Below the pieces are notes generated by a model that did no database searches, had not been told where the DNA came from, and was given only the letters and a program-made list of their open reading frames with translations. Below are positions 2,137-44,435 of a stretch of DNA of 57,370 nt, piece after piece. A program made the position numbers and the translations under genes. Every line of letters begins with the position of its first letter. Positions within the stretch are counted from its first letter, which is position 1. Source of the stretch: a virus (taxonomy: Duplodnaviria; Caudoviricetes). The DNA lies in IMG/VR virus record IMGVR_UViG_3300017707_001066, positions 1 to 57,370 of that record; one strand, written 5' to 3'.

Positions 2137-2149
2137 CTCCCCTTTTTTT
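2123..2149. terminator. Bidirectional terminator at the convergence of + and - transcription
   Basis: Perfect stem aaggggagt-atta-actcccctt with a T-run on the right and A-rich sequence on the left. It spans the stops of both convergent genes. Confidence 0.8.
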
Positions 2150-5100
2150 ATAGTATCGTTGACTGGAAGCTCTTCACTGCTTGTGCAGGATCTAAGTTGT
2201 TTCCAGAGAAACCCATTAGTTTTAAGAAATAAGCCCAAGCTTTGCTGTCTCCTTTTTCCCAAATACCAGATCTTCTTTTATATTCTTCTGTAATATTCCA
2301 AGGTAGAATTTGATTACCAAACTTGAATGCTCTTTCTAAACTACTAGTAACAGCTGATGGAGATCTTATTACCCTGAATAAGTCACCAGGGTTTACATAC
2401 TGAGCAGTCTCACTTCTCATACGTATAGCTTGGTAAAGTATAAAGTTATATATCTTACCATCTTTAAGTTCTTCATCTTCATCATCTCCTGAGCCTACCA
2501 TAAATGCTAGTATAGTAATTAATGCTATCATAGACATTAGGATTGTAATCTCAGCAGCTGTTCTTCTGATTTGTGCTTTTTGGAAAGGAGTATATGTAGA
2601 CCAAGCTTCCATAATATTACCTTTATATCTTACAATGTCTTTCATTAATGTTTGAAAGAAAGTAATATAGTAACCTTCTGTTCCTGCACCTAACTCTTCA
2701 TCAAAAGTATTTTTCTTCCATCTGCGTTTCATAGCTGGTACAAAATACTTACGGTATAATAAGGCTAATCTACCTAATGCGTATCTTTGGATAGTAGCTT
2801 TGTCAAACTCATTATAAACCCCTTGCATTCTTTTATTTAATGCATGCAGTTCATTTTGGAAGTCCTTTCTTTTCTTTTCAGTAAAGTCTGTATTCTTTTC
2901 TAGATCTTCAACATAGACACCATATTTTTCATGAGCTTCATATAAACTAATTTCTAGTCCAGTGTTTTTATCTATGACTTTAGTAGCATTCATAAGAGCT
3001 AACATGGTAGTAGTCTGAACTTCATGCTCACCTAAATGCTGGTTAAAGAATAAAGTATTTGTTCTAAATAGTTTGTTAAACATACTACCAGTTACTTTTT
3101 TACCATATTCATCAACAAACTCTCCTTGCATTGCATCATAGTAATCAGATAATCTACCTATAAGTGATTCAGGTACAGGCTTACCAAAGTCAGCAATCAT
3201 ACTACCTGTTTGTTTAGCATATTGAGCTTTTGCTTTTAGATAATCTTTTTTACCAAAAAATTCTCCAGCATTAGCTTCAATGATTACTTGTAAGTTACCA
3301 CCAATATTATTGGCAACACCTTTAAGTAAATCTAAAGCAAGGGTAGTCTTAGCAGATATCCCCATTATAGTATTAGTTATCTTACCTGCAGATAATCCTA
3401 ATACTTCTTCTGCTTTTTGAGACTCTCCATATACTACCATTTCTATGAAGGCTTCTAAATGTTTCTCAGAATTAGACTCCCCATTCTTTTTAATATACTC
3501 ATCATAGCCAAGTTTTTTAGCAATAGCATCAACCATTACTTGACCTTTTGAGTTAGTTTCTAAAACTTTTCTGTCCCCTATGATAGTTCTAAATGCACTA
3601 ATTTCTGAGTGCATGCTATTCATAGCCTCATATCTATTAGCCATACCACTGAACATAAGGATAGATCTAGTTAAGTCAAAACTTATTTCTGATTCATCCA
3701 TAGGTTGAGTGTAATACAATGGCAAGAATCTAACGTTCTCTTCACTTAATGAGCCTACCCCAAACTCACTGTCATAAGCTTGAATATTTATTGCTTCTTT
3801 ACCTTTAGTTTTAAGATATTGGCCAAGCTTTGTATCTCTCATTCTTTCCATTTCTGTTTTAGGAACAGAAGGAATAAAGAGTCCCATTTGACCACCTTCA
3901 GGTAATTTCTCTTGAGCTTTTAGATATATATCAGTTAAATACTTATGGTATCTACCTTGTTCACTGATAGGATTACCGTTTGTATCATAGAGTTTTTTCC
4001 AGTTATCATTTAAATATGCTGAAGATGGTTCTGAAAGAGATCCGATATATACCGTTGTACCAGTTCTTTCATTAAAGAACATGTTACTATTTTTCCAGTC
4101 TTCAAATTCAGTATTAGTAATAATACCAGCATTTTTTTCTTTAACTTTTTGACTGATTATTTTATCAATCTCTTCTTGACTCTTAGCTGTTTTATTAGTT
4201 CTATACCACTGAGCTCTTTCTTTTTTCCAAGCTTTAAGTGCAGCTAATTCTGCAGGTGTAGGAGTTTCTGATAGTATAGGTTCTGGACCTATTCTATCAT
4301 ACATAGCTTTTTCAGCAGCTCTAAACTTGTTCATGTCAAACTTCTGAACAAATGAAGGTCTCTTAATTACAACAGGATTACCATCTTTATCTAGAGTAGG
4401 TGTACCGTCTGCATTATATTTTGGAACTTCTATAATTTCATAGATACCCTTATAGAGTTCTTTCATGTTATCTTTTGAAGCACCTATTTTACTAACAAAT
4501 TGTTGGTATTCTTTAGCTACTTCTCTTTGAAGTTTTTCATCTAAAACTCTTGCATCTTCAAAAGAACCTTTGATCATTTTAGCAAATAGAGCAAGTGCAC
4601 TATCATCTGAACTAATAAGTGGACTTAAAAGATAATCTAGAATACCCTCATCTTTATTAGCTTGTTTTAATAACTGCTCTAATTTATTTTCATCTAAAAG
4701 ATATCCTTCATATTGCTCTAATCTTTTATTAAGTTGAGCTAGTTTGTTTGCTCTACCTTTATCAGATAATGTAGTGCTAAGTTCTACTGCATTAATCTGT
4801 GCTTTTAAAGAATCTATTTCAGCTTGAGTTCTTTCTGTTGCTCTTCCTGATCTATATTCAATAAGTGTTTTAGATATTAATGGAATTGCCTCTGTAATAA
4901 ATTTAGAACGGATATTATCTCTAGTTGCAATAGCAGCAGTAAGCTTCTCTTGTGGAGTCATCTTACCTGGTTCTTTTTCTACTACATCATTGCTAAAGTA
5001 TTTATAGATGTCTTCTTTACTTATCTCATCTAATATGCTATAACCGTTAGCAAAGTCATTAAGAGATACTAACTCATCTAATAATTCTTTAGGATCTTTT

Positions 5101-5543
5101 CTATCTTTTTTAGCAAGTAAATTAGCCAATCTTTTCTTAGCTCTTAATGATCTTTCATAAGCATCATTAACAAACATGTTAATAGAGTCTACTCCCTCAA
5201 GAGCATCCATGTTTTCTTTAAGAGATTGATACTGTGCTTTAAGTGCAGTCTGATTTTTTACTTTAGTTCTTTTAAGATCATTAAGCTTTCTATCTATAAA
5301 GTATTTTACTTTCTTTACTGCATCCCCAAACTCTCCTTCTTTGAGTTCATCATCAGTCTGGTCTTCCGCTTCCTCTGTTTCTTCAGGGTCGTTAATGTTT
5401 GGGTTATCTGCATAACCTTCTTCTTCCCATATCTCTAAAGCTTTTTTATACAGTTCATCTTCATTAAGAGTAGGGTTTGCATCCACTACTCTTTGATAAA
5501 CATCTTTCCATTCTTGGCTTGCTCTATTTGGACATCCTAACAT
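2148..5543 (-). CDS. Large virion ejection/cargo protein (1131 aa) with a C-terminal hydrophobic helix
   Basis: Long helical ORF directly downstream of the virion RNAP. N-terminus is MLGCPN. Hydrophobic segment ITILMSMIALITILAFMVG lies near the C-terminus. Position matches crAss-like cargo genes. Confidence 0.65.
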   Translation of the reverse strand: MLGCPNRASQEWKDVYQRVVDANPTLNEDELYKKALEIWEEEGYADNPNINDPEETEEAEDQTDDELKEGEFGDAVKKVKYFIDRKLNDLKRTKVKNQTALKAQYQSLKENMDALEGVDSINMFVNDAYERSLRAKKRLANLLAKKDRKDPKELLDELVSLNDFANGYSILDEISKEDIYKYFSNDVVEKEPGKMTPQEKLTAAIATRDNIRSKFITEAIPLISKTLIEYRSGRATERTQAEIDSLKAQINAVELSTTLSDKGRANKLAQLNKRLEQYEGYLLDENKLEQLLKQANKDEGILDYLLSPLISSDDSALALFAKMIKGSFEDARVLDEKLQREVAKEYQQFVSKIGASKDNMKELYKGIYEIIEVPKYNADGTPTLDKDGNPVVIKRPSFVQKFDMNKFRAAEKAMYDRIGPEPILSETPTPAELAALKAWKKERAQWYRTNKTAKSQEEIDKIISQKVKEKNAGIITNTEFEDWKNSNMFFNERTGTTVYIGSLSEPSSAYLNDNWKKLYDTNGNPISEQGRYHKYLTDIYLKAQEKLPEGGQMGLFIPSVPKTEMERMRDTKLGQYLKTKGKEAINIQAYDSEFGVGSLSEENVRFLPLYYTQPMDESEISFDLTRSILMFSGMANRYEAMNSMHSEISAFRTIIGDRKVLETNSKGQVMVDAIAKKLGYDEYIKKNGESNSEKHLEAFIEMVVYGESQKAEEVLGLSAGKITNTIMGISAKTTLALDLLKGVANNIGGNLQVIIEANAGEFFGKKDYLKAKAQYAKQTGSMIADFGKPVPESLIGRLSDYYDAMQGEFVDEYGKKVTGSMFNKLFRTNTLFFNQHLGEHEVQTTTMLALMNATKVIDKNTGLEISLYEAHEKYGVYVEDLEKNTDFTEKKRKDFQNELHALNKRMQGVYNEFDKATIQRYALGRLALLYRKYFVPAMKRRWKKNTFDEELGAGTEGYYITFFQTLMKDIVRYKGNIMEAWSTYTPFQKAQIRRTAAEITILMSMIALITILAFMVGSGDDEDEELKDGKIYNFILYQAIRMRSETAQYVNPGDLFRVIRSPSAVTSSLERAFKFGNQILPWNITEEYKRRSGIWEKGDSKAWAYFLKLMGFSGNNLDPAQAVKSFQSTIL

Positions 5544-8500
5544 AACAGTTCACGTATTTTTGACATAATTTCATTGTACTCAGTCTGAGTTTCTGCGGCC
5601 TCTAATTTAGAGATAAATTCATTGATATCATAGCCTTTAGCTGCTATGATAAAGTTCATTTCAAGGTCATTAGCAATAGATCTAAGGTTTTTAAGATCAT
5701 CTTGTTTCTTACGTTGAGATACGGGCTTTTTAGATTTACCTGTTTCTACAACCCTACCTTGTATCATACTTACATTTTCCATTAGTACAGTACCATCAGT
5801 ACTAACTAGGTCATACAAGTTTGTTTTAGAATTTCTAGCCCAAACACTTTTACCTGGTACAGCATCAAAGACTTCAGGCAATTGATTACCATTAGCTATG
5901 AATGCTTCTTTAAACCTAGGTACATGATCTATTTGGATACTGTTTTTCTCAACACCACCTTCTTCATCTCTTATCTTAGCTTCTACATCTTGAATTTCAG
6001 AAAGTATTCTATTAATATCACTTTGGTAGTTATACTCACTGATATAATTTTCCTTACCTATTTGAAGGATATCAATGATCATGTTTCTGATTTCTTGCTC
6101 ATCTATAGGAGCTCTACCGGATTCTTCATAGAATTCATTTTCCATGATTTGATGAGCAGCTTGTGTAACAGATAGACCAGAATTACTTAATAAAGCTGAA
6201 TTAATATCTTTCCCAACACCTGTTTTAATACCAGTCTCTTTCATTGCAGAAGATGGAGTTATCTTAGGCATAGCAAGAGCTACAATAATGTTATTATTAT
6301 TTTGATAAGCCTTTTCTTGTAATTCTTGGTAGTTTCTTAAGTCAGCTTGAAGAATTGCTAAGTCTTGTTGTAGACTTGACGGATCATCTTGAGGAGATGA
6401 CATAGGAGACATAGATGGTGAAGTAGGCATGCCTGGTTCTATAGGCATAACTCTTCTCATAGTAATGGTTACCCTATAAGAACCTGCTGGATATGTTTCA
6501 CCATCAATCTTAGTAGTCAGTGTTGGTAAAAAACTATTTTGCGGAGTAGGGAATGTTCTATGCCATACTTCTCTATTAACACCATTTAAACCAAATATAT
6601 ATCCTGTACCTGGTTGAAGATTTAGTGTTTCATTTTGTGGTCCTAATCTTTCTATAGAGAAATTACCATCGCCACCTAGGTTAACACCAATTACTGGATA
6701 ATTAATAGCAGATCTACTTTCATCTACATCATTGTGAGAGTTAATAAAAGTATCTTTTTTATATATATTTATAATAGCACCATCATAATTGGTCATATCT
6801 ACACCACTTGCTTTTTGCATAAGTTCTCTAAATCTAGAACTGATTTCTCCAAGAGATTGACCATTTATTGATTCAGTGTAGTAACCATACTTAGGGTTGT
6901 TTACTATTTTGTCAGGAATATTAACAGCCTGTCTTCCGCGATTATTATCTGTATAATCCCATCTTAAACCAAGACCAATCATTTTACTAGCGCTAGCACT
7001 TTTAAGTGTTCTAGCACCTTGCTCTTCTATGAATGGTTTTAAGTAATTAAATAGTTCAAGTTGTTCTTCTTTTGTAAGAGCTCCTTGATTTACATAAATG
7101 CCTGGTTTAACTTCTTCTCCTTTAGGAGTTGCAGTAGGTTCAGCAGTCTTAAATGTATTTTCATATACATCTCTGATAGCTTGTTTAGCAGCTTCTTCAA
7201 CGTCTTGACCTCTATATTGAGGTCTTGGTACCCAATTACCATCTCTATCTTTTATACTGTAGGATTCAATATCTCTTGAGCCTACACCAGCAAAGTTTTT
7301 AGTAAGGATAGGAGTATTTACTTGTTCAAATTCTTTACCGTTAAATTTAAACCAACTTCTATTATTTAAATCCCATACATATACTGGTTTTCCAAGTTTA
7401 ATTCCTAATTGAACTGCAACATCAGTACCACCTTTAACTTTATTTAAAAGATATCCGTACTTGGATTTAGTACTATCAGTAAGATTTGGATTTGATTTAT
7501 CAGTAGTTGTAGTTAATTCAGCAATAGCATATACAGCATCAGCATTAGCTACTTGATAATAGTTTCTTACTTTAAGATTACCCTCTGTTGTATCAGGGTA
7601 TTTTTCTCCAAGTAATTTTTCTACCTCAGCTCTTGCTGTATCCATTTGTTCTTTAGTAAGAACTTCAGCTTTAACTCCAGCTTTTCTTAATTGAGCTGCT
7701 AAAGAAGCATTACTTGCTTCTCTATAATGTTTATGATTAATTACACCAAACTCTCTACCAATTATATCCCAATAAGTGTCTCCACCATATGCTCCTCCAG
7801 AATGATTTGTGTATTCAGAAGCTTCAGCTGAAATAGTTCCAGTTTGTTGTGGAGCTTTTTCTCCTTCTTCCCATTCAAATTCTTCTTCAAATTCTTCTTG
7901 TGGTAATGGTGTAACTTCATTGTAAGCTTCAAGTGAAACACCATAAGTTTTAACAGGTACTCTTTTATCTTTAATAAGTCTATTAAAAATCATATTAAGA
8001 GTATTATCACTCATGTAGTTTCTTTGGAAGTTTAAAGAAGCTTCAGTCATGTCTTTCATGAATGTTTCTACCTCTAAGATTTTTGGGAAACCAAATGTAG
8101 TTTTACCTACACCATGCTGGAAGAACATCATAGCTGAGAAGTCCTGGAACATTTTACTGATTCTAGCATTCTCAATTGGGTCTTCTACTTTTTTAATAGT
8201 AGGATCTGCTAATTGACTAATCTGTCTTTTATAGTTAGTAGCTACTGCTCCTTTAGCATTATTTTTATCAGCAAATTCTACAATACTAAAGTTACCTCTA
8301 AGTCTAGCTTTAGAAAGTTGATTAATGATAGGATAGTCAGCAACAAGTTTTACAGACTGTCTCATTTCAGTTAACATCTCAAGCAAACTTTCAGTATATG
8401 AGTACTTAGTAGTACCCATAATATATGCTGGATTAAAAGTATTTCTTAATGCTGTATCAGATACGTAGGCAAAGAATGCAGCATTCCCATCTTTATATTT

Positions 8501-11500
8501 CTGAAGATATTTTTGGAATGTTTTATCTTGTTCTACTGATTCAGGTAGTGTAGCAATAAGAACTTCTCTTTCAATAGCATATCTGTAATACTCATTTACA
8601 GTTTTAAAAGGATTTTGTTTAGGTGTGAATACATCTAATCCTCTAGAGGTATAACCTCTATCTGTTACATTAGTTACTAAATATGCTTTAGTATTAAAGT
8701 CTTGTTCTAAGAGTTTAGTATTTACAATAATCTCATTAGGTTTAACAACAACATCTTCTGGGGAATTGTTATCAATTCTAACTTTTTTACCTGCATAATT
8801 GTCTGGAACATTTGTTAATTGGCCATCAGCATCTACAAAATTAGATTTGTAGTTCTGATAGATAAAGTCCATTATAGCATTGTTAAACTTAGTAGTAAAG
8901 TATTCTTGACCTTTTACACCAGCACCGTATGTATTTTTAATCATTCTTGCTTTATACTTAAGTGCATCAGCAATATAATTAGAAATAACTTCATTAAGTC
9001 TTAATGGCATTAATGGTACAATCAAGTCCTTAATTAACTGTGTCTGATTAAATGAAGATAAGATAGATTTATTCTTAAAATTGTCTAAGAACTCCTGATC
9101 AATTTTAGATTTACCAGTTAGTGCTGCAAGAGCATCTTCTCTTTTATTAACCTGTTGTACTGTACTAAGTTTAACTGTATCACCAGTAGAAAGTATTTGT
9201 AAACCATTCATACCTTCTCCTTGCTTTTCTAATTCAATAAAGTTTAAGAAATAAGCAAGTTGTTTTAACACATCTTTTCCACCAGTTTCTAAAGATTCTT
9301 TAAGATCTTCAAGTTCAATCTGACCTTTAGGAAAATATTGTTTAGAAAGTATTTCTGCAGCATAGTAATATAAACTATCACTTGCTAAGTTTGCAGTCCA
9401 GCGGTATGGGAAAAGTTGTATTTGATCCTCTTCAGCAACAGTTCCTATTTTAGAAATGTATTCTATTTTAACTTCCCCTTTTTTAATACTGTTAACAATT
9501 TGATCTACAGTACGATTCAGTGTTGTATCCCTACCTATAGTAACTTCATAAACTGCATTCTTATCAGCTTTATATAAACTATTTAATACATCTTTTAAAT
9601 GCCTTATATTAGCTTCTTGTGTAATCCCTGTTAGATCTGCTTCATCTACATTATTTACAACTCTACTCATAATAGAGTTAATAGCTTTTGTTTTAGCACT
9701 AGCTTGACCACCTTCAAAAATAAATGCATAAGAACTATCAAATTTTCTTTGATCATTAATATACTTAGCAATTATTGGTTGGTTAACAAAGTAGTAAACT
9801 GTTTCTTGTGGTACACCAGCTTCAATCATGTCATTGATGACATTCATAGCTTGTGGTACCATCTTTAAAACAAATGGGAATGGATTCTTTGCACGGTCTA
9901 AGATACCATTAAGGTTATGAGAATTAATATCAGTAATTCTATCACCATTTTTATTTCTCTCATTTCCTAATGAAATATGTTCTTTACCATTAATAGTAAC
10001 TGTATTATGAGGGAATCTCATTTTAAAGTTAAAATCAATGTCAGTTTCTTCAGGAGAGTTAGTAATAGGATTCCATGCAATCTTTTTATATGTAGTAGGA
10101 AACTTAGCACCAAGTACTTTATTTAATACGTGGTTCTTAGTTCTTTTAGCCTGGATACCAAGTGATTTATTTAATGATAAGTTAGCATCATGGACATAAC
10201 GGTTGTAGCCAACTTCAAGCATTCTTGTAGGGCTAAGAACATTTTTCTTACCATCTTTGCTTTTATTAGCAGGAACGTTATGTGTATTTTTAAACTTATC
10301 ATAACCACCTGAATATTTTTCTAGGTCTTTAACATATCTTTCTACAAGATAAGTTTTGTTAGGTCTAGTTAAATATACAAAGTTATTTGGTAACATTAAA
10401 AGATCAATAGATGCTTTTAAGTATTCATTCTGAAGAAACTTCTTTTGTTTGTTTAGCAATTGTCTAGATGTAAGTACATCATCTGGTAGCTTACCATCTT
10501 TTTCTAACTGCTTAGTTTCAGCATATACTTTATCAAAATCAGCTACTCCTTTATTAATAAACTTACCTTCATTATCAAGGTTAGCTTGCATTAAGAATAG
10601 TTTATCAGCATCAAAGTCAGCACCAGACTTAGCAACAATCTCAGTAGGTAATATAATACTATTACCTGCAGCTGGGTTTAAGAAGTGCCAAACCTCTAAA
10701 GCTTCAATTGTGTTAGAAGCATCATTAGGAATCCTTGGACCAAACAAAGAAATAGATAATCTATTTTCAGCCAACCAAGCATCATCTTTAATTAGAACAT
10801 TGAGTTTGTCTAATGTACCAATCTCATTACCCTCTTTATCTTTTAACTTAAGTAAGTTCTTATAGTTATCAGTAAAAGGAATAGCACACTTAGCTAATGA
10901 TGTAGCAAGTCTTTTACCAGTAACCGGATCTATTTCACCTCTTCTATAGAATGCTAAAGTATTACTACCTAAAAGCTTTCTTCTTTCTGCAGGATCTGTG
11001 ATAGCATCATATGGAGCATCCCAAGAACCATTAGTAAATGTAGTAGGTGCCTGTACTAAAGGCTCACCATTAGTAGTTTGCTTAATCAATCTTTTATAGA
11101 TAATACTCATTAAGATTTTTTCTACACCATCTGCTTCCGGGTGTAAAGAAAGATCTGTTACAAGTTGACCATCTAGAGTTGTATTAAGGATTCTAAGCAA
11201 GTGTTCTGGTACACCATTGGCTCCAAGCTCTTCTCTGATTACAGATATAAACTTCTTAAGATTACCCTTGTATTTACCATTACCATTTTCATCTTCTACA
11301 TATTCATAACCAATTTCATTAAGAAGATCTTCTTTAAGTAAGTCTGAGTATTTAGCTACTTTATTTTCATAGTTTTTAACAATTGGCTCATTATCTTTAT
11401 CTATAATTTTACCATCACTATATTGGTTGTCTAAGTTAATTACACGGGTCTGAGTAGCAATTGGAATCTTTTTCTTAAGCTCATCATTGATTACAGTTAC

Positions 11501-14500: not shown

Positions 14501-17500
14501 GTCAAGTGCTACTTCTTGTTCTTCAGTTAAAGCTGGTTGTGGAAGTTGTTGTAATTCTATAGATGTATACTGTTTAGCCCCACCTGCAATGTAATTATCT
14601 AACTGTACTTGAGCATCTGATAAGTTAGATACCACCATAATGCTGATAGGTTTTCTACCAGATTTGATTTTATTGTGTACATAAAAGTCAGATACTACTT
14701 TGATTTCATGCCAGGATTCTCCTTTAATTCTATCACCACGTTTGTTATCTGCAGTAAGACTAGAGAAGTCTTGGATTTGAGACTTAAGGAAAATGTATTT
14801 ATCTTCTCCCTTACTACTCTTCATTATACCAACAGCATTCTCTTTAACTTCTTTTAAAGACTTAAAGCTGTTAAAGTCTGGGAAGTTAGTAATATCACCA
14901 AGTCTTTTCTTCTCAGCATCTAACTTATCTTGAAACTCTTTCTTAGCTTCATTGTACATCCAAGCTCTTTTAGCTGGATCTACAAGCATAACAATACTAG
15001 CAGACTTTAAACTTTTAGTATCACCAGATAGTTTTCTAGCTTGAAAGATATCATCTAGTTTTTGTGAGAAGAAACTATCAATAGATTCAGATACTAAGTC
15101 TGAGTCTGATTTACTTAATGCATCTTTACTAGGTTTAGTAGTACTAACAATACCACGGTCTAGTTCAAAGAAATGTACATTCTCTATTGAAGCAGTATAG
15201 TCATTGATTCTACCAAAGAAAAGATTCTCATAGAGCTCTTTTACTTTTGGTATATTCATTATATCTTGAACAGCTTCTTTTTTAGAGAACTTAGATTTTA
15301 TAGCATCAAAGATACTTTTTAAGAAGTCTAAGATTTTTCTAAACAAGTTGGTCTTAACTGGTGCTTCTTTAAATGGTTTTTCATTTTTAGCATAAGTTCT
15401 AAAGTCTTCTGCTAAGATTTCTTCAAGTTCAAAATAACTTTTACCAGCATATGGTTGATTACCGTTCTTATCAGTATAGTTTCTTAACTCATCATATAGT
15501 TTGAACTTCTGATCTTTAGTTAAGAACAACTGTGAGAATGCGTGCCATGATTCATGGTATACATCTACATAGGAACCTTTTGCTGGATTGATTTGGATTT
15601 CACCAAGTAAACCTTTACTACTAACATTAGTGGGGTTAAAAAGATTAGCTGCAGACAAAACAAACTTAGCATACACATTAGAGTTAACTAAGTTAGCTGC
15701 TTGCTCAAGTGACAAATATTTTTGAAGTTCTTTACCTGCAGGGCTATTCTCCCACCAGTTCTTAGCATTAGCTTGAACTTGTTTAGCTAATATTTCATTT
15801 ACATAACCAGCTCTTTGTAAATCTTCCCAACCAGGAATGTCAGATATATTTACACCTGGATTAGTTACTACAGTACTAACTGTAGAGTTATCATTGTCAG
15901 GTGTAGGGATTTCTGGATCAGCTATACCTTCTACAACATCAATTGCAGCTTCAGTATTTTTCTGAACCGGAGTTTGTTTCTTAGCAAACTGTTCATTAGA
16001 ACTTTCACGGACATAACCTACAAGCTTATCATTTGCATATACAGCAATAGCATTGTATTTAATTCCTTCTGTTGTCTGAAGTTCTGGTACAAGTTCTAGT
16101 CTAGCTTCTACATTAAGAGCTTGGCCTGTAGATAATGCTTCTTCTGTAACTTCTGCAAAGTTCTCAGGAGTAATCTTTAATTCTTGATTGTAGAATCTAG
16201 CTTTATTACCATTAGCATCAAAGAAGTCAAAACCTGTAGTTGTAGTAGTAGGCTTAGCAATTCTACCAGTAATTACTTCTCCATTCTCAAGTCTCTCAAT
16301 AAGTGCTGTTCTAACCTTAGCTACATCTGAGTCATCTTGAATAGCTTTATCAGCATTGTTCTTATAGTTTGTTTCATTAGCCTTTTGTAATCTAGCTAAG
16401 ATATCATCTGGCTGAGAAAAAAGTAATGAGTAATTGTAGAATCCTGGATCAAGATTAGTAATATCAATAGTAGCATCTACATTGTTCAATAGAAAATCTA
16501 AGTAAGGTTCAGTCCCTATTGTTTTAGTTCCTATATCATATCTTAGGTACTTACCATTTTTTCTAGGTTCCTCTGCATATACAATCTTAGTAGGACCACC
16601 ATTATTACCTTCAGTCAATGCAGTATACAATGCTGTTTTAATATTAGCAATGTCTTGTGCGGTTGCATTTTTTAAATCTTTGTTAGACAGTTTATATGGT
16701 GTATATACTCCTTTCAATCCTGTTTCTGGATAAATTTTAAGAGTAACTACTTCTGTTTCTGGATTCATCAAAAGAGCATAGTTTCTTAAGCTAGGATGAA
16801 TTGTAGAAGGAATAAACTGATTAATATAGCTTTGCTTAATACTAAATGGAATCTCTGGATTAACTATAAACTCAGCAATCTCTGTTGCTAACTCATTAGT
16901 AATATTAGGTCTTTCTAAAAGAAAGTTAGTTCCATTAAGAGTAATTTTTGCTCTACCAGCAGCAGTACCAGATTTTATGATACCAATACTGTCATATACA
17001 GCATTGCTCATTCCTGGAAACTTAATGATATCTTTTAAGCTAATGTAACTTGAAGTCAAGTAACTAGGTACACCTGTACTAATTCCTGTTAATGGAATCT
17101 GCATAGGTTTAGTATTTACTATTTCTTCTTTAAGGTTGTATAATCTTTTGAGACTTTCTTGTTGCTGCTTGTCAATCATCTTAACAAACTCAGCATAATC
17201 TCCATCTGAAGGCTGATAAATTTTTTCAGCTATTTCCTCAGCTGATTTTATAATGTTTTCAGTATCATAAATATCAGTAGCAGTGTATCTATTATTCTTA
17301 ATACGTACATCTTTCATGAACTGGTAAACTAACTTACCTTTCTCTTGAGTAGTAATGTCTCCATTCTCATCAAAGTAAATAGGCTTACCATCTTTATCAC
17401 TTACTACAAGAATAACTCTATTGAAAGCTTGTGTAACTCCAGGTTGGTTTAATCTGTTTTTAACTAATGTTTTAGATTTTGTAACTTCTGCCACAGTAGT

Positions 17501-28030: not shown

Positions 28031-28666
28031 TTAAATATATTTAAATGTTGTTTTGTTAGCTCTTTTACCAGATAATTTTCTACTTAGAGTACTTTTTGTA
28101 ATATTTAATACTTCACATAACTCAGCTAAAGAATTATATACAATATTTGTAGTTGTATCTATAATTTTTTTACCTTTTTTTAGTCTATGCACTTTTTTAA
28201 AATCTATAAGTTCTCTTGATCTTTGTAATAATTCTTTATGCTCTGGTGAAAGAGTTCTTTCTTTAAGTTTTTGAATACAAAGTTCTGATGGTTTTTGACC
28301 TTTATTAGCAATTCTTAGTTTTTCCTTTGTTTCTTCAGAGTGTATAGAATTTCCATTTGGGTCTGTCGGTTTTAGATTATAACCAATTGTTCTATCTAAG
28401 CAATTAAGTTCATTAACCCAGTAGTGTTCTTTAGCATGTAAATCATTTATATCACATTTTTCAACTATTTCAAAAACAAAGTTTTCTTCACCATACTTAA
28501 TCCATGCTTTTTGTAAATAACTATTATGATGTTTATTTTGTCTTAGATCATAGAGATGACCATTTATTCTAGTTCTTACATTAGAGGCACAACCAATATA
28601 TATCTTACCACTAGCAATACTAGTAATCTTATATATTCCGGGATTTGATTGTAAGTACGTTGCCAT
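28031..28666 (-). CDS. Free-standing GIY-YIG homing endonuclease with NUMOD3-like and C-terminal HTH (NUMOD1-like) motifs
   Basis: GIYKITSIASGKIYIGCASNVRTR, HHNSYLQKAWIKYGEENF, GYNL, HSEETKEKLR and YNSLAELCEVLNITKSTLSR. Confidence 0.9.
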   Translation of the reverse strand: MATYLQSNPGIYKITSIASGKIYIGCASNVRTRINGHLYDLRQNKHHNSYLQKAWIKYGEENFVFEIVEKCDINDLHAKEHYWVNELNCLDRTIGYNLKPTDPNGNSIHSEETKEKLRIANKGQKPSELCIQKLKERTLSPEHKELLQRSRELIDFKKVHRLKKGKKIIDTTTNIVYNSLAELCEVLNITKSTLSRKLSGKRANKTTFKYI

Positions 28667-34364: not shown

Positions 34365-37292
34365 TTATTGTCCAGGCACATAACCAAGATCTATTCTTGA
34401 GTCATAGTTACCTGAATTATTTATTCTATTAAGAATTTGATCTAATGGTACCTCATTCATATGAGCATATTTTTTTAACAGTTCTGTTCTCTTTCCTGTA
34501 GGGTCATTAAGTTTTACAAATTCATTGTGAGTGTCATTACCTAAGTTAATAAACCAATCTCCTGAATCAGCTACTTTATATACTGCACCTGGTCTTTGAT
34601 CATAAGAAAATGTTTCATTAACACTAAACTTAGGTTTTGCAACTGGCTGTGTAACAGGTTTTTTAACTGCTTGTTTTTTAGCCGTAGGTTTGGCAGGTAA
34701 TGTTTTAGGTGTATTAACTTGTTTAGTAGCTGGACTTGTGCCTTCAATAACAGATCTTGTCCATGCATTTCTTTGTGATAAAGGAGCACCATTAGTGTAT
34801 CTCTTATATTCTTTTAACATTCCGGCTTTATCACCTTTTACAGTAGCCGCCATAAAATTAGGAAACTTATGTAGTACACCATTATATGCATAGTCTACAA
34901 GTAATACTTTTCTACTTTCCGGTAACTTATCAAATGTTCCAGCTCCATATTTTTTATCAACTGTATATTTAGCAATGTTTGTATGTCTAGCTAAATCCTT
35001 TTTTTGTAATGCTAATACCTGAGCTGTAGTAAGTCCCTGAGAATAGTTTTCTTTACCTGATAATTTATGACCATAACCAATAGTTTTATTACCACCTTCT
35101 ACACTATCATGTGGATACCATTTACCTCCTTTATAACCAGCTTTTACTGAGTTCTCTAGTTGTCTTAGTTGTTGTTCATATGATTGAAAGTTTACACCTC
35201 CACCATTATCATATTCTTCAATCTCTTCTACAACCCAACCACCTTTTCTGTATTCTTCTATTTCTTCATCTGTAAGTTCAGCTTCTTCATACTCTCCACC
35301 ATCTTGTTTGTAATCCATATATGATTGACTACTCAAGCCTCTTTCTATACCTGGAAGATAATGATAGTTTGTACCTACTCTTTTTACCAAGTCTCCACCA
35401 TGACCAGGTCTTCTTACTCTATATTTAGGAGTTGAAAACTTGTGCTTATGTGTATCAATATATAAATCAGGTAGTATACCTTTTCTTCCCATATCTACAT
35501 AGTTCCCCTCTTCATCAATATAAACTTGTTCTTCCGGTGTAATAGCTTCTTCTACTTCTTCTGTATCTTCATTAGTTGTAGTTTCATCAGTTGTAGTTTC
35601 TGGATATATAAATTTCTTTAACTCCGGATTAACTCTAGTAGGATGAAGAGTTGGTATTGGTTTTTCTAGATCTTCATATACAGGATTAATAACTGTTGTG
35701 ACCTTTCCTGTTTTAGAATCTAGTTGTTGTACTTCTTCTTCACCTATTATTTTTTTTCCTTCTGGTGCACTTTTTGGAACATTATTTATTACAGGTTTAT
35801 ACTCTGTAGGATATTGATGTTCTTTTGGTTTTGGCTTTGTTTTAGAAGGCACTGGAGGTTTTTGAAATATTACCTTTTGTCTAGGTGGTTGATATCTAGG
35901 TTTAGTATCACTATGCCACGTACCCTCTTTAGAATCACCAAAAAATCCATCAATATGATGTGGAAAAAAATTACTTTTTGTTTCCCACGCAACAGGGTAA
36001 TTTTCTACATCTGGGTACAATTTTTTATCCTGCATAATTTGATTATACATAAAGTCTTCCCAAGCCCTAGACTGTGCGCCTTCATTCAAACGATCTATAC
36101 CAACAGACTTATCTTTTTCTATAGTAGTTCTTGTTTTTCTTGGATTTATAGTAAGATAGGGAATATTTGTAAATGGACGATAGTATGTACTCCTTCTCAT
36201 AGGTTTAGGCATAATTCTATTATTAGTATTAGCCACTGATAAACTATCCTCATAAGCTGCTTTCCTATAAGCATACTCTTCTGGATCTGATGTTACAAAG
36301 GGTGCAACATTTCCTTTAGGTTTAAATTTTGTACTTTTTTTACCTGTATCTTTACCTTTACCTGGTCCACCTCCTTTAGGATATGTTTCTAAATCTTCAA
36401 TAATATACCCTCCCTTTCTATACTCCTCTATTTCTTCTGGAGTAAGTTCTGCTTCTATATAATCTTCTTCTGGATATTCCTTTCTATAAGATTCATCTGG
36501 AGTAATTTCTTTATAATGTTCTGCAAAGTACATGGCATCTTCAGGATTATCAAACCGCATGGCTTCTGCAGACTCAGGACCAAAATCACCAAGCATAAGT
36601 TGACCATTAACATCTTGTATTAATGGTACTGCATAATTATCCATAGATGCCATAAAATGAGTTCCAGTATCACCATGATCAAATACATATGGTTGATCAG
36701 GAGCTACTACCATTCTTTGAGCAGCAGGATTACCATGCATTTGAGCATATGCTAATCTTGCTTTCATCATAGCATTATTAGCTGCATCAATTTCTTCTTG
36801 TGATGTTACTCCACCAGTTGGTTCCCCTTGATCCATTATACCACCATCCTGGTATTGTGACTTAGGATCAAATATTTTTCTTTTCTTAGATTTAGGTTTT
36901 GCAAATAAAGGACTTTCAGTAAACAATCTACTTGTAGCATCTATACTACGAGAGAATTTTTTATCATAAGCTTTTTTATTTTTCTTAGTAAGCTTAGGCA
37001 TCTTAACTAATCCACCTTTCTTCATAGGTATTTCATACACAGAATCTCCAGGAAACTGATATTCTTCTCCTGGTTGCATCATCATCTGATTACCAAGGTC
37101 ATCAATACCTAATACAGGATAATCTACACCCTGCATAGTAATTCTACCATCTGCATTAGGTATCAAAGTATTCATACCTGGGTAAGCCCACTGACCTTCA
37201 GAAGATGTAATAAAACCTTCTGTAAATGCTTTTAGTTCATTAGGTCCACCAGGTAAACCCTTATTGGTAAACTTGCTAAAGTATTCTTCCAT
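34365..37292 (-). CDS. Modular virion protein (975 aa) with a C-terminal T4-type (GH24-like) lysozyme domain
   Basis: LRQLEN...WYPHDSVEGGNKTIGYGHKL...LLVDYAYNG...R lysozyme motifs (~34750-35190). Modules are separated by xxGG motifs. Confidence 0.7.
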   Translation of the reverse strand: MEEYFSKFTNKGLPGGPNELKAFTEGFITSSEGQWAYPGMNTLIPNADGRITMQGVDYPVLGIDDLGNQMMMQPGEEYQFPGDSVYEIPMKKGGLVKMPKLTKKNKKAYDKKFSRSIDATSRLFTESPLFAKPKSKKRKIFDPKSQYQDGGIMDQGEPTGGVTSQEEIDAANNAMMKARLAYAQMHGNPAAQRMVVAPDQPYVFDHGDTGTHFMASMDNYAVPLIQDVNGQLMLGDFGPESAEAMRFDNPEDAMYFAEHYKEITPDESYRKEYPEEDYIEAELTPEEIEEYRKGGYIIEDLETYPKGGGPGKGKDTGKKSTKFKPKGNVAPFVTSDPEEYAYRKAAYEDSLSVANTNNRIMPKPMRRSTYYRPFTNIPYLTINPRKTRTTIEKDKSVGIDRLNEGAQSRAWEDFMYNQIMQDKKLYPDVENYPVAWETKSNFFPHHIDGFFGDSKEGTWHSDTKPRYQPPRQKVIFQKPPVPSKTKPKPKEHQYPTEYKPVINNVPKSAPEGKKIIGEEEVQQLDSKTGKVTTVINPVYEDLEKPIPTLHPTRVNPELKKFIYPETTTDETTTNEDTEEVEEAITPEEQVYIDEEGNYVDMGRKGILPDLYIDTHKHKFSTPKYRVRRPGHGGDLVKRVGTNYHYLPGIERGLSSQSYMDYKQDGGEYEEAELTDEEIEEYRKGGWVVEEIEEYDNGGGVNFQSYEQQLRQLENSVKAGYKGGKWYPHDSVEGGNKTIGYGHKLSGKENYSQGLTTAQVLALQKKDLARHTNIAKYTVDKKYGAGTFDKLPESRKVLLVDYAYNGVLHKFPNFMAATVKGDKAGMLKEYKRYTNGAPLSQRNAWTRSVIEGTSPATKQVNTPKTLPAKPTAKKQAVKKPVTQPVAKPKFSVNETFSYDQRPGAVYKVADSGDWFINLGNDTHNEFVKLNDPTGKRTELLKKYAHMNEVPLDQILNRINNSGNYDSRIDLGYVPGQ

Positions 37293-40200
37293 TATCTAAG
37301 AGATATTTGACTTTTAGTATTTACAAGTTTAACTATCATGTTTACATCTCCAGGGTTTTCCTTATATAGATTAATGTAATTAAGATAGTGTCTAAACTTT
37401 TTTCTTTGTAATTCTGGTTTATTATAATCTACAGCAGCAGAGTTAATATTTCTGATATAACCATTAGGTGCAGTTAACCATAACGGTTGATCTGCATAGT
37501 TACCTTGAATTACAGTAGTGCCAGGCACTACCGCTCCTGTTGGTGGATAATCTGAACCAATAGGAAATTCTGCACGGTCTTTAGTAATATCCCAGAACTG
37601 GTTAAATCTATACTTGTTTTCTTCTTTACTAAATAAGATATCAAAAGACTGTAAGTTAGATTGATTAAGCTTAGGGTATTCTTGTGCTAGAGCAATACTG
37701 TTTTTAGGATAAAGGTTAAGATTTAAGTATCCTGAAATTTGCTCTGAGTTATAGATTACTGCTTTATCAAAGTTATAATCTAACACATGGAATTGATCAA
37801 CACAATTGTTTTTACCTCTTCTGTAAGATTCTAATAAATACTCTACAGATTTAATAGTTGTAACTGTCTCACCTGTTATTACAGGAAGTTCAATCTCAAA
37901 AGGATATTCTGTACCATAGAAGTTACAGTAATCATTACATGTCATGTTATGTTTCCATATACCATTATTCTTAACTGTTAAGAAAGTATTTTTGGAAGCA
38001 AGAGTTAAATCAGGATGCCAGTCATGGAATGAGATAAAGAAATCATTCTTAGGGTCATAACTTACTGTCCAAGATGCATCATCAAATATAGTAGGATCTC
38101 CAAGTGAGAATGTTGTACCAGGGAATGCTGTAACCACAAAATAATCTTTTTTGCTTTTAGCATCCATAGGAATATAAGTAGTCAGTCCTACATATTCTGG
38201 TTTTAGTTTGTAATCTTTTTTAGTAAAATAAACTACAGAACTATCATTATCATATAATGCTTGGCAACCAATACCAGCTACTGGATTATCTACCCATGGG
38301 TAATCTGGAAAGTCTTCAGTAAGCTTATATGGCATAAAATAGTTAAACCACCATTTCATACCAGTTTGAGATATTTCTTTTAGTCCTCCAGAGTATTGGA
38401 AAATCTTACCTTGATTTTGAGACACATAGTAAATACCTGCTGGTGTAGCAACTATAGAAAGTCTATTTTGTGATGAACCATACTCATATGGTCTATCAGC
38501 ATTTGTAGCAGACTGAGGTGGTTGACTAAATAATCCACCATCTCCAATAGTTACTTTAGTACCTAGATCAGTTTCTAAGGTATCAACACCTTGATACATT
38601 ACTGGGCTGGCATTTTTAAATGTTATAAAGAGACCACTTTTATTAATTGATTTAACACCACTGATCTGTGACTGAAACTCTTTATAGTTATTTACTAGAT
38701 ATACAAACCAACTATCTTTAAATGACTCAAACTGTACAGGTAATGAATAATAAATTCTATCAGGGTAGTAAGTATAACATAACTTAGCTACCTCAGGATT
38801 ATAGTATCTGCTTTGTAAATTACCTGAAGTAAGATACTGTGAAAACATCTTAGATATACTCAATGAGTAATCATATCTATATAAAGAGTTTTCAGTAACA
38901 CTATCTGGATTTAACTCAAACATTTTATACAGATCCGTGTATCTATATGGGTCATAATGTTTTTCCCATTCATAGTCACCGGCTTGTCTAAAATCTATAA
39001 TAACATCACTTTCTACAAAAAAGTCTATAACTGAAGAAGAAGCTAAATAAAAATATGCTTCTTTAGTTCTCCAGAATCCAGCATAACTATCTCCTGCAAG
39101 ATTTTTTTGTACAACATCATTTGTGTAATCATAAAATCTAGTGTTACTAACATTAAAATCTAGATTATAAAATTTACTTGGTTTCCATCCTGTACCAACG
39201 GTTGGTAATCCACCACCTGAAATATCAGGAGTAGCATCAGATGAATCATAAGAACTAGAATTAGCCCAGAATCTTGGCTGATTTATTTGTTGGTATAACA
39301 AATAGTTATACTCAGTTCCATCTGGACTATTGTACAACCAATCATAGAAAAAGAACATATTATTCTTTTCTGTATATCTAGTGATATATGTGTCTCCACC
39401 AAAGAAGATAGGAGTTCTATTAATTAATCTAGTTGTATAGTTTACACCATTACAAACATAAGGACCTATAATCGGTAATGTTGTATAATCAAACTTTTGT
39501 TCACATGGAGTAATAATAATTTGTTTGATTCCATCTAATTGACCATACTGATTTCTAATTCTATTTTTAATAGCAGCATAATGACTTGCAATTGGCAAAC
39601 CAAATGGTGTATCAGGAGTAATAAAGTTAGGAAGATTTAATCCAGATGGTGCTAATACAGATAATGTATTAGGACTTACAACACCATCTTGTTGAATGTG
39701 ACCAATGGTTGTAAGTGACTGGTCTACAAAACCACTGGCTTCTTTAATAAAGTCAGGACCGGTAGTTTTATTACCATTATACTCTGGACCAGCTTTAGTT
39801 CTAAGAGTTACCGTAGACTGTCTTTGAAGGTTGTTAATGCTATAAGCACTAGACTGACCTTGATAATAAGGAATCTCTTGTACAGAATCTTTAATATAGA
39901 ACTGATCTTCTACAGAAAATCTAAATAACCCATTATCTGAAGTATCTTGATATGTTGGTTTTCTCATGTCTGAGTAAAAACCATATGATATCATTTGTAG
40001 TGCATACTGAGTATAAGGTATAGCAGCTTTAATAACATTTAAAGCAGTATCAAATCCTTCTGTAAAATAGTATGCAAAGAATGATGTTCCATAAAGAGCT
40101 TTAGACACAGGATCTAAATATGCCCACGGTGGCATCTGAACATTATATGTAGTATTCCATGGAGAAATAACACCTGCTGCTGCACTCGCATTTAATGCTA

Positions 40201-42717: not shown

Positions 42718-43773
42718 TTAAAACAATGTTGATGAATTCAATCTTCTTCTAAATGCACTAGTAGGCTCATATGACTTAAACATGTCATAGTATCTACTAT
42801 ACATTGCTTTTCTGTTTGTTAACCAAACCTGTTCCATTTCTCTAAAGTTTGGAGTGTTAACTAAACTCATTGCATTGTTTCTTGCAGCTTTTAATCTTTG
42901 TTCTACAAGTTGCATTCTTTGAGAAACATCTTCTCCATTCATATAAAGATTTTCCATGATTCTTTGCTTAAGAGCATACTCATAGAATTCATTGAGAAGA
43001 TCATGATCAGGTACAAGTAAAGTACCTTCTTCATCTTCCATTTGACCTTGGTAATTAAGGTATACAGTACCTGTTTCAAAAGTAGTAAATAGGTATCCTC
43101 CTTTGATCCATCCTTGATTAGCAACGTTATAATATAAGTTAGGGCAGTTACAGTCTATTTCTTGACTAGCCTTCATTCTTAATGGAATAAGATTTTTCCA
43201 GACTCTAACATTAGATTGATTAATTACTTGAACAAGTTCATACTGTTCTCCTTTACAATTCATAAAGACTCTTGGTCTTGTACAAACATCTCCATAAGGA
43301 GCTAAAGGATTATATTCTGTTGGAATAACATTAGGAGCGCATGTAGGAGGACATGTGTTATCTAGACATGCTGCAGTATGGTTACATGGGTTTGCATTGC
43401 ATACAGCGCAGTTTACTGTAATAGGACTGCACACATCTACATGAGCTGGAGTTTCTACATATGGAATTTCTTGAATATTAGTTCCACCCATCCATCCATC
43501 ATATCCAATCTGTTGAACATGTTCTCCACAGATAGCTGCAAAGTTAAATGTATAGAAATCATCTGGTAATTTTACTTTACCGTGACACACTTCTAATAAA
43601 ACTTCCTTAGTTTGATTTACTCTTAAACCAAGTTCATAGGTAACTCTTTTAGCAACTTTAATTAATTGCTGCGGCTCTATCATATTTTCTAGAGCAAAAG
43701 AACTGAGATCAACTGTTACATCTTCTAACAATTGATCAAAGGTTCTATATTTTAGTGTGTAGTTAAAATCCAT
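42718..43773 (-). CDS. Tail tubular / ring protein (crAss Ttub-like) with a Cys-rich insertion
   Basis: GKVKLPDDF...YLFTTFETGTVYLNY...LLVPD...YALKQRI pattern, positioned upstream of the muzzle gene. Confidence 0.65.
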   Translation of the reverse strand: MDFNYTLKYRTFDQLLEDVTVDLSSFALENMIEPQQLIKVAKRVTYELGLRVNQTKEVLLEVCHGKVKLPDDFYTFNFAAICGEHVQQIGYDGWMGGTNIQEIPYVETPAHVDVCSPITVNCAVCNANPCNHTAACLDNTCPPTCAPNVIPTEYNPLAPYGDVCTRPRVFMNCKGEQYELVQVINQSNVRVWKNLIPLRMKASQEIDCNCPNLYYNVANQGWIKGGYLFTTFETGTVYLNYQGQMEDEEGTLLVPDHDLLNEFYEYALKQRIMENLYMNGEDVSQRMQLVEQRLKAARNNAMSLVNTPNFREMEQVWLTNRKAMYSRYYDMFKSYEPTSAFRRRLNSSTLF

Positions 43774-44435
43774 TACCTAAGTACATTTTGGCCATCATCA
43801 GCATTATCTTGTGGAATCTGCATCATGGTAGTTAATTCTTTAATAGCAAATTGTTCTACTTCTGCAAACAAGTATTCAGGTATTGTCATATTCTGATCTT
43901 GTTTTATAAGGCAATCATCTGAAGTACATGTATCAACAGTACCTTCAAAGATGGCCTCCATTCTTATAGCATCCCAATCAATATTAGGAAAGTATAAGTA
44001 ACCATCTAAGTACCAGAAATATCTGTTCTTGTTATATTTAAAAGTTGTAGTTTTAGTCATAGAGACCCAAGTACCAGGTTCAGTTCTAAATAACTCTATA
44101 GTACCATCTATTGAAGATACAGTACGGATAATAGGTCCAAACATTCCATTAAGAATACTTGGAACTTTTTCTTTAGATCTTTTAAAATAACAACCGGAAT
44201 ATACACCAATGCAACCAGCTTCTACTTTATCTACATCTATCAGTTCAATATAAGGAAGCACTTGAAAAATAGAACTCATTCTCATGAGTCTAAATTGATT
44301 ATCTTCTCTCTTAATAAGAGCTTTAGCATACTTTAAGATAGAGTAGTATATAGTTCTATCAGTTAAGAAAGGATCTTCCTTAACTCCTTTAAGAACATTT
44401 CTTACTCTAGATACTGCTTCACCAATTGTTGTCAT
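43773..44435 (-). CDS. Tail ring / head-tail connector protein
   Basis: 220 aa with LTDRTIY...YFWYLDGYLYF...AIFE and C-terminal PQDNADD. Synteny with crAss-like ring genes. Confidence 0.6.
   Translation of the reverse strand: MTTIGEAVSRVRNVLKGVKEDPFLTDRTIYYSILKYAKALIKREDNQFRLMRMSSIFQVLPYIELIDVDKVEAGCIGVYSGCYFKRSKEKVPSILNGMFGPIIRTVSSIDGTIELFRTEPGTWVSMTKTTTFKYNKNRYFWYLDGYLYFPNIDWDAIRMEAIFEGTVDTCTSDDCLIKQDQNMTIPEYLFAEVEQFAIKELTTMMQIPQDNADDGQNVLR

Follow-up and report, generated by a model that had tools for sequence, protein, structure and literature searches.

Enzymes of the AlkB family remove methyl damage from DNA or RNA. Why would a DNA phage carry such a dioxygenase within its RNA polymerase? 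The question is raised by the IMG/VR virus record IMGVR_UViG_3300017707_001066, a linear stretch of 57,370 bases from a freshwater crAss-like phage. The record has an estimated completeness of ~48%; it was analysed over its whole length and is called the window here. On its minus strand the window encodes P0001 (5537..18172), a protein of 4211 amino acids (aa) taken from the list of open reading frames (ORFs) and its translation, and classified here by homology as a crAss-type virion RNA polymerase polyprotein with an AlkB domain. We show that P0001 includes, at aa 3691-3906 (6455..7102, minus strand), a complete Fe(II)/2-oxoglutarate dioxygenase domain of the AlkB family. This domain constitutes an optional in-frame cassette which related phages gain, lose and exchange, and it occupies a variable slot flanked by the core of the crAss-type polymerase on one side and by a conserved C-terminal tail on the other.

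Identification of the AlkB domain

The initial annotation had quoted five peptides as signs of an AlkB-family dioxygenase and assigned them to positions 6445-7110, which correspond to aa 3688-3909 of P0001. All five are real and lie within this one minus-strand ORF, IGLGLRWDY starting at aa 3732, YDGAIINIYKKDTFINSHNDVDE at aa 3796, VIGVNLGG at aa 3827, WHRT at aa 3870 and RVTITMRR at aa 3900, together spanning aa 3732-3907. The assignment to the AlkB family is borne out by profile, fold and residue mapping. The Pfam profile PF13532 (2OG-FeII_Oxy_2) matches aa 3691-3906 over its full length (profile positions 1-194 of 194) with 45.4 bits and an E-value of 1.4e-11, the curated cut-off being 31.2 bits, and a six-frame search of the record with the same profile gave 51.2 bits at 6455-7102, a stretch free of stop codons. 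As a sequence match this is far beyond chance.

The domain is divergent, as a single-sequence phmmer search against the PDB did not match any chain at E-values up to 1; phmmer with the whole of P0001 returned two chance-level PDB matches only. A profile built from the domain and 21 short relatives (A1) matched 15 PDB sequences at E-values up to 1, every one of them from the AlkB family, with OsALKBH1 being the best match (1.3e-10) and E. coli AlkB following near 1e-3. The fold prediction proposed along with the initial annotation yielded a confident AlkB-like fold and not a model lacking the double-stranded beta-helix: AlphaFold2 run on the A1 alignment reached a predicted local distance difference test (pLDDT) score of 93.6 and a predicted template modelling (pTM) score of 0.91. 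A Foldseek search of this model against PDB structures listed nothing but E. coli AlkB down to rank 23 (E 2.7e-11, TM-score 0.72-0.77 on the target), followed by OsALKBH1 and human ALKBH2/3/5/6, and in the BFVD database AlkB domains of RNA virus replicases were matched at E-values of ~1e-8.

Alignment of A1 with E. coli K-12 AlkB by hhalign (probability 95.3%, E 2.1e-8) allowed us to map the active site residue by residue, with the codon coordinates of the key residues being verified by translation. The iron ligands of the HxD motif are H3813 and D3815 (H3813-N-D3815, 6728..6736, minus strand), paired with E. coli H131 and D133, and the third ligand is H3871 (6560..6562, minus strand), paired with H187, the sequence REVWH being aligned with RLFYH also by the PDB search with A1. 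Co-location of the metal ligands is thus implied by the alignment to the E. coli H131/D133/H187 triad. N3802 and Y3804 (N3802-I-Y3804, 6761..6769, minus strand) correspond to the 2-oxoglutarate (2OG) contacts N120 and Y122, and R3900, T3904 and R3906 (R3900-x5-R3906, 6455..6475, minus strand) to the 2OG carboxylate contacts R204, T208 and R210. The alignment furthermore pairs Y3762 with Y76, Y3764 with Y78, D3817 with D135, E3818 with E136 and R3867 with R183. W3738 lies outside the hhalign span and is likened to W69 by motif only (M-x6-W versus M-x7-W). Between the W and YxY motifs of the lid there are 23 residues in the phage domain versus 6 in E. coli AlkB, which makes the lid of the phage domain the larger one.

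These residues are conserved among the relatives of the domain. With the single sequence as query, 208 clusters were found among 1.84 billion representative proteins at E-values up to 0.001. From the best 150, which were listed, we assembled a set of 96 copies consisting of the query and the 95 clusters that cover the whole domain; the 55 remaining clusters were left out. N3802, Y3804, H3813, D3815, T3904 and R3906 are invariant in all 96 copies, E3818 is present in 95 and R3900 in 82, and in every one of the 96 a histidine occupies the third-ligand column of the alignment or the one next to it. The position of D3817 is occupied by Asp in 52 copies and by Thr in 34. Judged from these sequences, such conservation is what one would expect if the enzyme were active and under selection, and an idle or decayed domain was rejected on the conservation of the catalytic residues. 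The search did not reach the cellular AlkB proteins, suggesting that the phage domains form a distinct AlkB clade.

The AlkB domain is carried by a crAss-type RNA polymerase

The fusion of the domain to a virion RNA polymerase, also claimed by the initial annotation, was upheld by analysis of the central part of P0001. Searching phage records by tblastn with aa 1501-3000 resulted in matches to Crassvirales only, one of which is annotated as 'putative RNAP catalytic subunit' and is aligned across the DFDAD motif. A profile of aa 2300-2820 (9713..11275, minus strand) and 15 relatives (A3), defining the polymerase core segment, matched a single PDB entry below an E-value of 1, namely 6vr4_A, 'DNA-dependent RNA polymerase' (E 4.9e-29, 104.5 bits), with GsDFDvDkl standing opposite GSDFDIDKM. 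The catalytic DFDAD motif was verified at aa 2519-2523 (10604-10618, minus strand).

P0001 sits, according to the ORF map and Pfam, within a block of giant genes beside crAss tail and muzzle genes. These include a crAss muzzle protein (37292-42715, Pfam crAss_MUZ, 1.4e-30), encoded on the minus strand in the same direction as P0001, and tail ring proteins 1 and 2 (42718-43773 and 43773-44435, minus strand; CrAss_Ring_1, 8.8e-11, and CrAss_Ring_2, 4.5e-23). The Crassvirales matches, the profile match to 6VR4 and the crAss tail genes together indicate that P0001 holds a crAss-type virion polymerase core. The homologue gp66 of Cellulophaga phage phi14:2 is described in the Drobysheva preprint as being packaged in the virion and entering the cell, and as transcribing DNA efficiently when it is single-stranded or denatured and poorly when it is double-stranded (bioRxiv 10.1101/2020.03.07.982082). 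We infer that P0001 is likewise packaged in the virion and injected together with the DNA.

In the N-terminal third of P0001 we observed a HESWH sequence of the HExxH type (aa 873-877, 15542-15556, minus strand). The region around it aligns co-linearly with 40 of 72 related ORFs and has no Pfam match; the gene lying upstream of the RNA polymerase (RNAP) gene of Rudgehvirus jaberico is annotated as 'ZnMc_tr'. Taken together, the HExxH motif and this annotation suggest that the region of P0001 may be a fused zincin-like peptidase.

AlkB is an optional in-frame cassette

That the AlkB domain is optional and exchangeable had not been noticed in the initial annotation. The boundaries of the inserted element are given by a natural in-frame deletion. 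A contig of 8505 nucleotides (nt) from a lake-water sequencing run of another study (X6, depth 15.7) joins position 6391 of the window directly to 7133, skipping 741 nt that are exactly codons 3681-3927, i.e. a cassette of 247 codons (aa 3681-3927, 6392..7132, minus strand) which has, besides the AlkB domain, a short linker on the N-terminal side and a linker rich in Pro/Ser on the C-terminal side. On one flank this contig differs from the window at 21 positions in 855 nt. The AlkB-plus form was recovered from a freshwater run of a further study (X2), pieces of which are identical to the AlkB region. Run X1 was not counted, since it is possibly the source of the window record, uncovered stretches in runs X2, X6 and X23 were not taken as absence, and runs with small shares labelled as seawater, soil or estuary were not used to judge habitat. 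As a side observation, a freshwater metatranscriptome (run X23) contains a contig of 259 nt identical to the AlkB region (6717-6975), which is only a weak hint of expression as DNA can occur in metatranscriptome libraries.

Related proteins from the database show the same kind of module insertions and deletions at 87-94% identity. Three of them (P0154, P0155 and P0156; 88-94% identical) align to aa 1-3684 and 3923-4211 of P0001, with only the AlkB stretch being absent; P0157 (89% identical) retains AlkB and lacks aa 3444-3675, and P0158 lacks both modules. The presence or absence of AlkB in related polymerases, a survey of which had been recommended with the initial annotation, was examined in the best 120 of 255 homologues of the polymerase core found at E-values up to 0.001. 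AlkB is present in 39 of these, 35 being detected by the AlkB hidden Markov model and four by a precomputed Pfam column, of which two were confirmed directly.

A complementary survey of IMG/VR identified 72 loci with an AlkB domain, in 62 of which the ORF encodes at least 2000 aa. The polymerase catalytic region shares the ORF with AlkB in 58 loci, AlkB following the core in 54 and preceding it in four. Two complete AlkB ORFs are of intermediate size (L044, 1284 aa; L052, 936 aa), and small stand-alone AlkB ORFs of the same clade occur on three jumbo-sized contigs of 391, 368 and 274 kb (L058, L062 and L076). Two of these are complete (L058, 9944-10855, 304 aa; L062, 9944-10738, 265 aa), the third is truncated where the contig ends (L076, 9944-10339), and all three are 27-30% identical to the window domain. 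No match to the AlkB domain was obtained by tblastn against 50,697 phage records at cut-offs of 1e-5 and 1, a search from which the window's own record and near copies may have been left out.

A repeated linker and direct repeats bracketing 6392-7132 were sought, and only short two-copy families of 70-90% identity were found, none of them flanking the cassette; a step in GC content at the cassette was likewise sought and not seen, the GC fraction being even at 0.29-0.37.

Exchange between phages and other modules of related polymerases

AlkB similarity is uncoupled from polymerase similarity, which is plain in the raw identities. There are relatives with an AlkB domain 68-81% identical to that of the window in which the polymerase core is only 23-54% identical, and others with AlkB at ~30% identity and the core at 53-56% (e.g. 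P0126, P0165 and P0186). We placed the AlkB subtype, defined as above versus below 45% identity to the window, on a quick maximum-likelihood tree of the core comprising 68 distinct proteins (10 duplicates of 78 dropped). The subtype changes at least 17 times on this tree and two times on the AlkB tree; shuffling the labels on the core tree gave 20.6 +/- 1.8 changes, with 12 of 200 shuffles reaching 17 or fewer, and the count is only indicative as the core tree is rough over such deep divergence.

Directly upstream of AlkB we identified a further module (aa 3444-3675, 7148..7843, minus strand), delimited by P0157, in which exactly this stretch is missing. Its conserved motifs HSGGAxGxD, RNxxQVxNxDAV and GGTGYAVQMAI..GKPVYVFD (alignment A2), a weak Pfam cpYpsA match in three of 15 members and a model (pLDDT 83.4) with 3imk as best meaningful fold match (prob 0.98, E 0.075) suggest that it is probably, though tentatively, a cpYpsA-type SLOG domain. 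The PDB profile search gave nothing meaningful, Foldseek did not return any match at E-values up to 0.001, and the only PHROGs match on P0001 is a weak DprA-like one at aa 3452-3611. Of the 72 IMG/VR ORFs with AlkB, 19 have this module, which in some of them follows AlkB or precedes the polymerase core, and as far as these sequences tell it is a cassette independent of AlkB.

Downstream of AlkB, the C-terminal tail (aa 3928-4211, 5540..6391, minus strand) is co-linear in relatives lacking AlkB and shows 83-90% identity in P0154-P0156. Its last 90-160 residues (~aa 4071-4211, 5540-5960) also match five more distant relatives (L005, L006, L008, L011 and L068) at 30-39% identity. The end of P0001 being recognisable in relatives with other slot contents indicates that the variable slot is bracketed by conserved parts, and this conserved end may be required when the protein is packaged or ejected.

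Among the 120 polymerase homologues the precomputed Pfam column lists NADAR/YbiA in 15, PF25176 in eight, ART-PolyVal (an ADP-ribosyltransferase) in four, PIF1-type helicase domains in four, cpYpsA in three and a zeta-toxin-like kinase in one. These modules (in P0152-P0268), known from their presence in the protein and not from their position, mostly occur instead of AlkB and sometimes together with it; P0163, for instance, has AlkB mid-protein (aa 2104-2371) together with cpYpsA and ART-PolyVal.

Possible functions of the AlkB domain

Our data are consistent with a model, to which we give about even credence, according to which the injected AlkB domain directly removes N-alkyl lesions from the incoming phage DNA or from early RNA. 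The polyprotein would be packed in the virion and enter the host with the DNA as phi14:2 gp66 does, so that AlkB would be present before any phage gene is expressed. Using 2-oxoglutarate, Fe(II) and O2 of the host, it would oxidise N-methyl or N-alkyl adducts of the 1-methyladenine/3-methylcytosine type on the incoming genome, above all on the single-stranded template read by the polymerase and possibly also on early transcripts, and lesions blocking early transcription and replication would thereby be cleared. E. coli AlkB prefers single-stranded substrates. The need of AlkB for oxygen would fit the freshwater and lake-water runs in which the locus was found, and it would fit the finding that none of the deposited phage genomes searched gave a match, among them those of the gut Crassvirales that match the polymerase; both are only suggestive. 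AlkB domains of plant RNA viruses are described as reactivating methylated phage genomes (PMC2553587). Several observations weigh against a repair function. The cassette is dispensable, variants without AlkB exist and 81 of the 120 polymerase homologues lack it, so that a conditional role or one in conflict with the host fits as well as repair; the NADAR, ADP-ribosyltransferase and zeta-toxin-like kinase modules of relatives typify host-phage conflict and not housekeeping repair; and the lid loop, longer by 17 residues, may bring about a substrate preference differing from that of E. coli AlkB.

The patchy presence of AlkB, with its clean gain and loss among near-identical phages, would also be expected if the injected domain were an eraser counteracting host defence, the main rival explanation, which we consider possible but clearly less probable than direct repair. 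AlkB would then remove base methylation or alkylation installed by the host on the invading DNA or RNA, or strip protective methyl marks from host DNA, in parallel to other adduct-removing modules of the slot. The uncoupling of AlkB from the core and the repeated change of subtype on the core tree argue in this direction, with the change count being rough because it comes from a quick tree over deep divergence, and so do the NADAR/YbiA (15 of 120), ART-PolyVal (four) and zeta-toxin-like kinase (one) modules in relatives. On the other hand, the active-site residues match those of classic repair AlkB, and to our knowledge no anti-phage system works by AlkB-reversible base methylation, although no search aimed at this was made. 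Iyer et al. 2021 argue, with regard to sporadic phage AlkB, that these enzymes may reset methyl marks and not repair damage (PMC7824862). Taking this further, the slot might be a pre-loaded kit of DNA-adduct erasers, AlkB acting on N-alkyl bases and NADAR/macrodomain-type modules on ADP-ribosylated bases, with AlkB marking an undescribed host defence, or a pervasive pressure in oxic water, that disables incoming DNA by AlkB-reversible base alkylation, and with direct reversal being coupled to transcription on the single-stranded template by the tether to the polymerase; this extended model we regard as doubtful.

A role specific for RNA or directed at proteins is less likely than the counter-defence eraser. 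The tethering of AlkB to an RNA polymerase would suit an enzyme acting on early phage transcripts or on host tRNA/rRNA, the AlkB domains of plant RNA viruses are reported to prefer RNA (PMC2553587) and the RNA virus replicase domains are within reach of the Foldseek BFVD search at ~E 1e-8. The best fold and profile matches, however, are E. coli AlkB and OsALKBH1 and not the RNA virus domains, and fresh transcripts would have little time to gather damage, making an RNA-directed function unlikely. Some eukaryotic AlkB homologues act on proteins, and together with the lid loop being longer than in E. coli AlkB this could speak for a hydroxylase or demethylase with the polymerase or a host protein as its substrate, or for a catalytically idle spacer. 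We judge this to be very improbable, as all residues binding iron and 2OG show little or no variation among the 96 copies, which speaks against a spacer, and as the E. coli base contacts Y76, D135 and E136 have aligned equivalents in the phage domain.

Relation to known systems

E. coli AlkB, a DNA oxidative demethylase (PDB 2FDK, 2FD8, 3T4H, 3KHB and 6Y0Q, among others), is like the phage domain in its fold, in the iron triad and 2OG contacts and in the residues aligned with Y76, D135 and E136, at an identity of 16-18% in structural alignments, but it is a free enzyme of 216 aa belonging to the Ada regulon, whereas the phage domain resides inside a protein of 4211 aa. With phi14:2 gp66 (6VR4) P0001 has in common the homologous core including the DFDxD motif and the crAss-type context; gp66 comprises 2180 residues, whereas P0001 additionally has the HExxH region upstream of the core and the variable enzyme slot downstream of it. 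The words 'AlkB' and 'dioxygenase' do not occur in the text of the Drobysheva preprint on gp66, the supplements of which may list domains.

The plant RNA virus replicases described by van den Born et al. 2008 (PMC2553587) likewise contain AlkB within a viral polymerase polyprotein and have spread it horizontally by recombination. AlkB guards an RNA genome there, whereas P0001 belongs to a double-stranded DNA phage, is a DNA-dependent two-barrel RNAP and probably has its AlkB pre-loaded in the particle. The polyvalent proteins of Iyer et al. 2017 (PMC5512222) are also giant, multi-domain, probably delivered with the DNA and variable in their modules between close relatives. P0001 has this architecture, with the RNAP core, AlkB, the SLOG-like module and the HExxH motif being combined in one ORF and varying between relatives, and it would by analogy be delivered into the recipient cell with the DNA, the difference being that its carrier is a crAss-type two-barrel RNAP. 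AlkB, 2OGFeDO (the 2-oxoglutarate/Fe(II)-dependent dioxygenases), dioxygenase and crAss are not found in the main text of Iyer et al. 2017, nor AlkB or dioxygenase in that of Yutin 2021, with the supplements of either possibly listing domains. Stand-alone AlkB-like 2OGFeDO proteins of jumbo phages, described by Iyer et al. 2021 (PMC7824862), are phage-encoded and sporadic as well, being known from a few jumbo phages, but are free genes expressed after infection, whereas AlkB of P0001 is fused to a virion protein. Our literature searches did not return a paper on an AlkB module in a crAss-type or other virion polymerase; the automatic annotation of the Joint Genome Institute names some of the giant homologues 'alkylated DNA repair dioxygenase AlkB'.

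The components themselves, i.e. AlkB enzymes, virion polymerases of the crAss type and injected phage proteins with several domains, are known in their own right; a paper on an AlkB module borne by the injected RNA polymerase of a DNA phage was not found by our searches. Should the domain be active and enter the cell together with the genome, phages living in oxic waters would have direct-reversal repair, or an eraser of adducts, at their disposal ahead of the expression of their first gene, adding a new layer to the biology of the first minutes of infection. The natural variants with and without AlkB, nearly identical in their flanks, provide a ready pair for comparison, and the changing contents of the slot could point to host defences acting on DNA bases.

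Genes adjoining P0001 and a homing-endonuclease-like ORF

The ORF upstream of P0001 (18172-25098, minus strand, 2308 aa) shows a weak PD-(D/E)XK nuclease signal at aa 1640-1754, with 20.4 bits in Pfam, below the cut-off of 22, and a PHROG exonuclease match of 2.5e-6. Its stop codon and the start codon of the polymerase ORF share one base, and the end of the polymerase ORF likewise overlaps the start of the next ORF (2148-5543, 1131 aa), suggesting coupled translation of the giant genes. Between two large genes of the virion block we furthermore observed an ORF of 211 aa resembling GIY-YIG/NUMOD3 homing endonucleases (28031-28666, minus strand).

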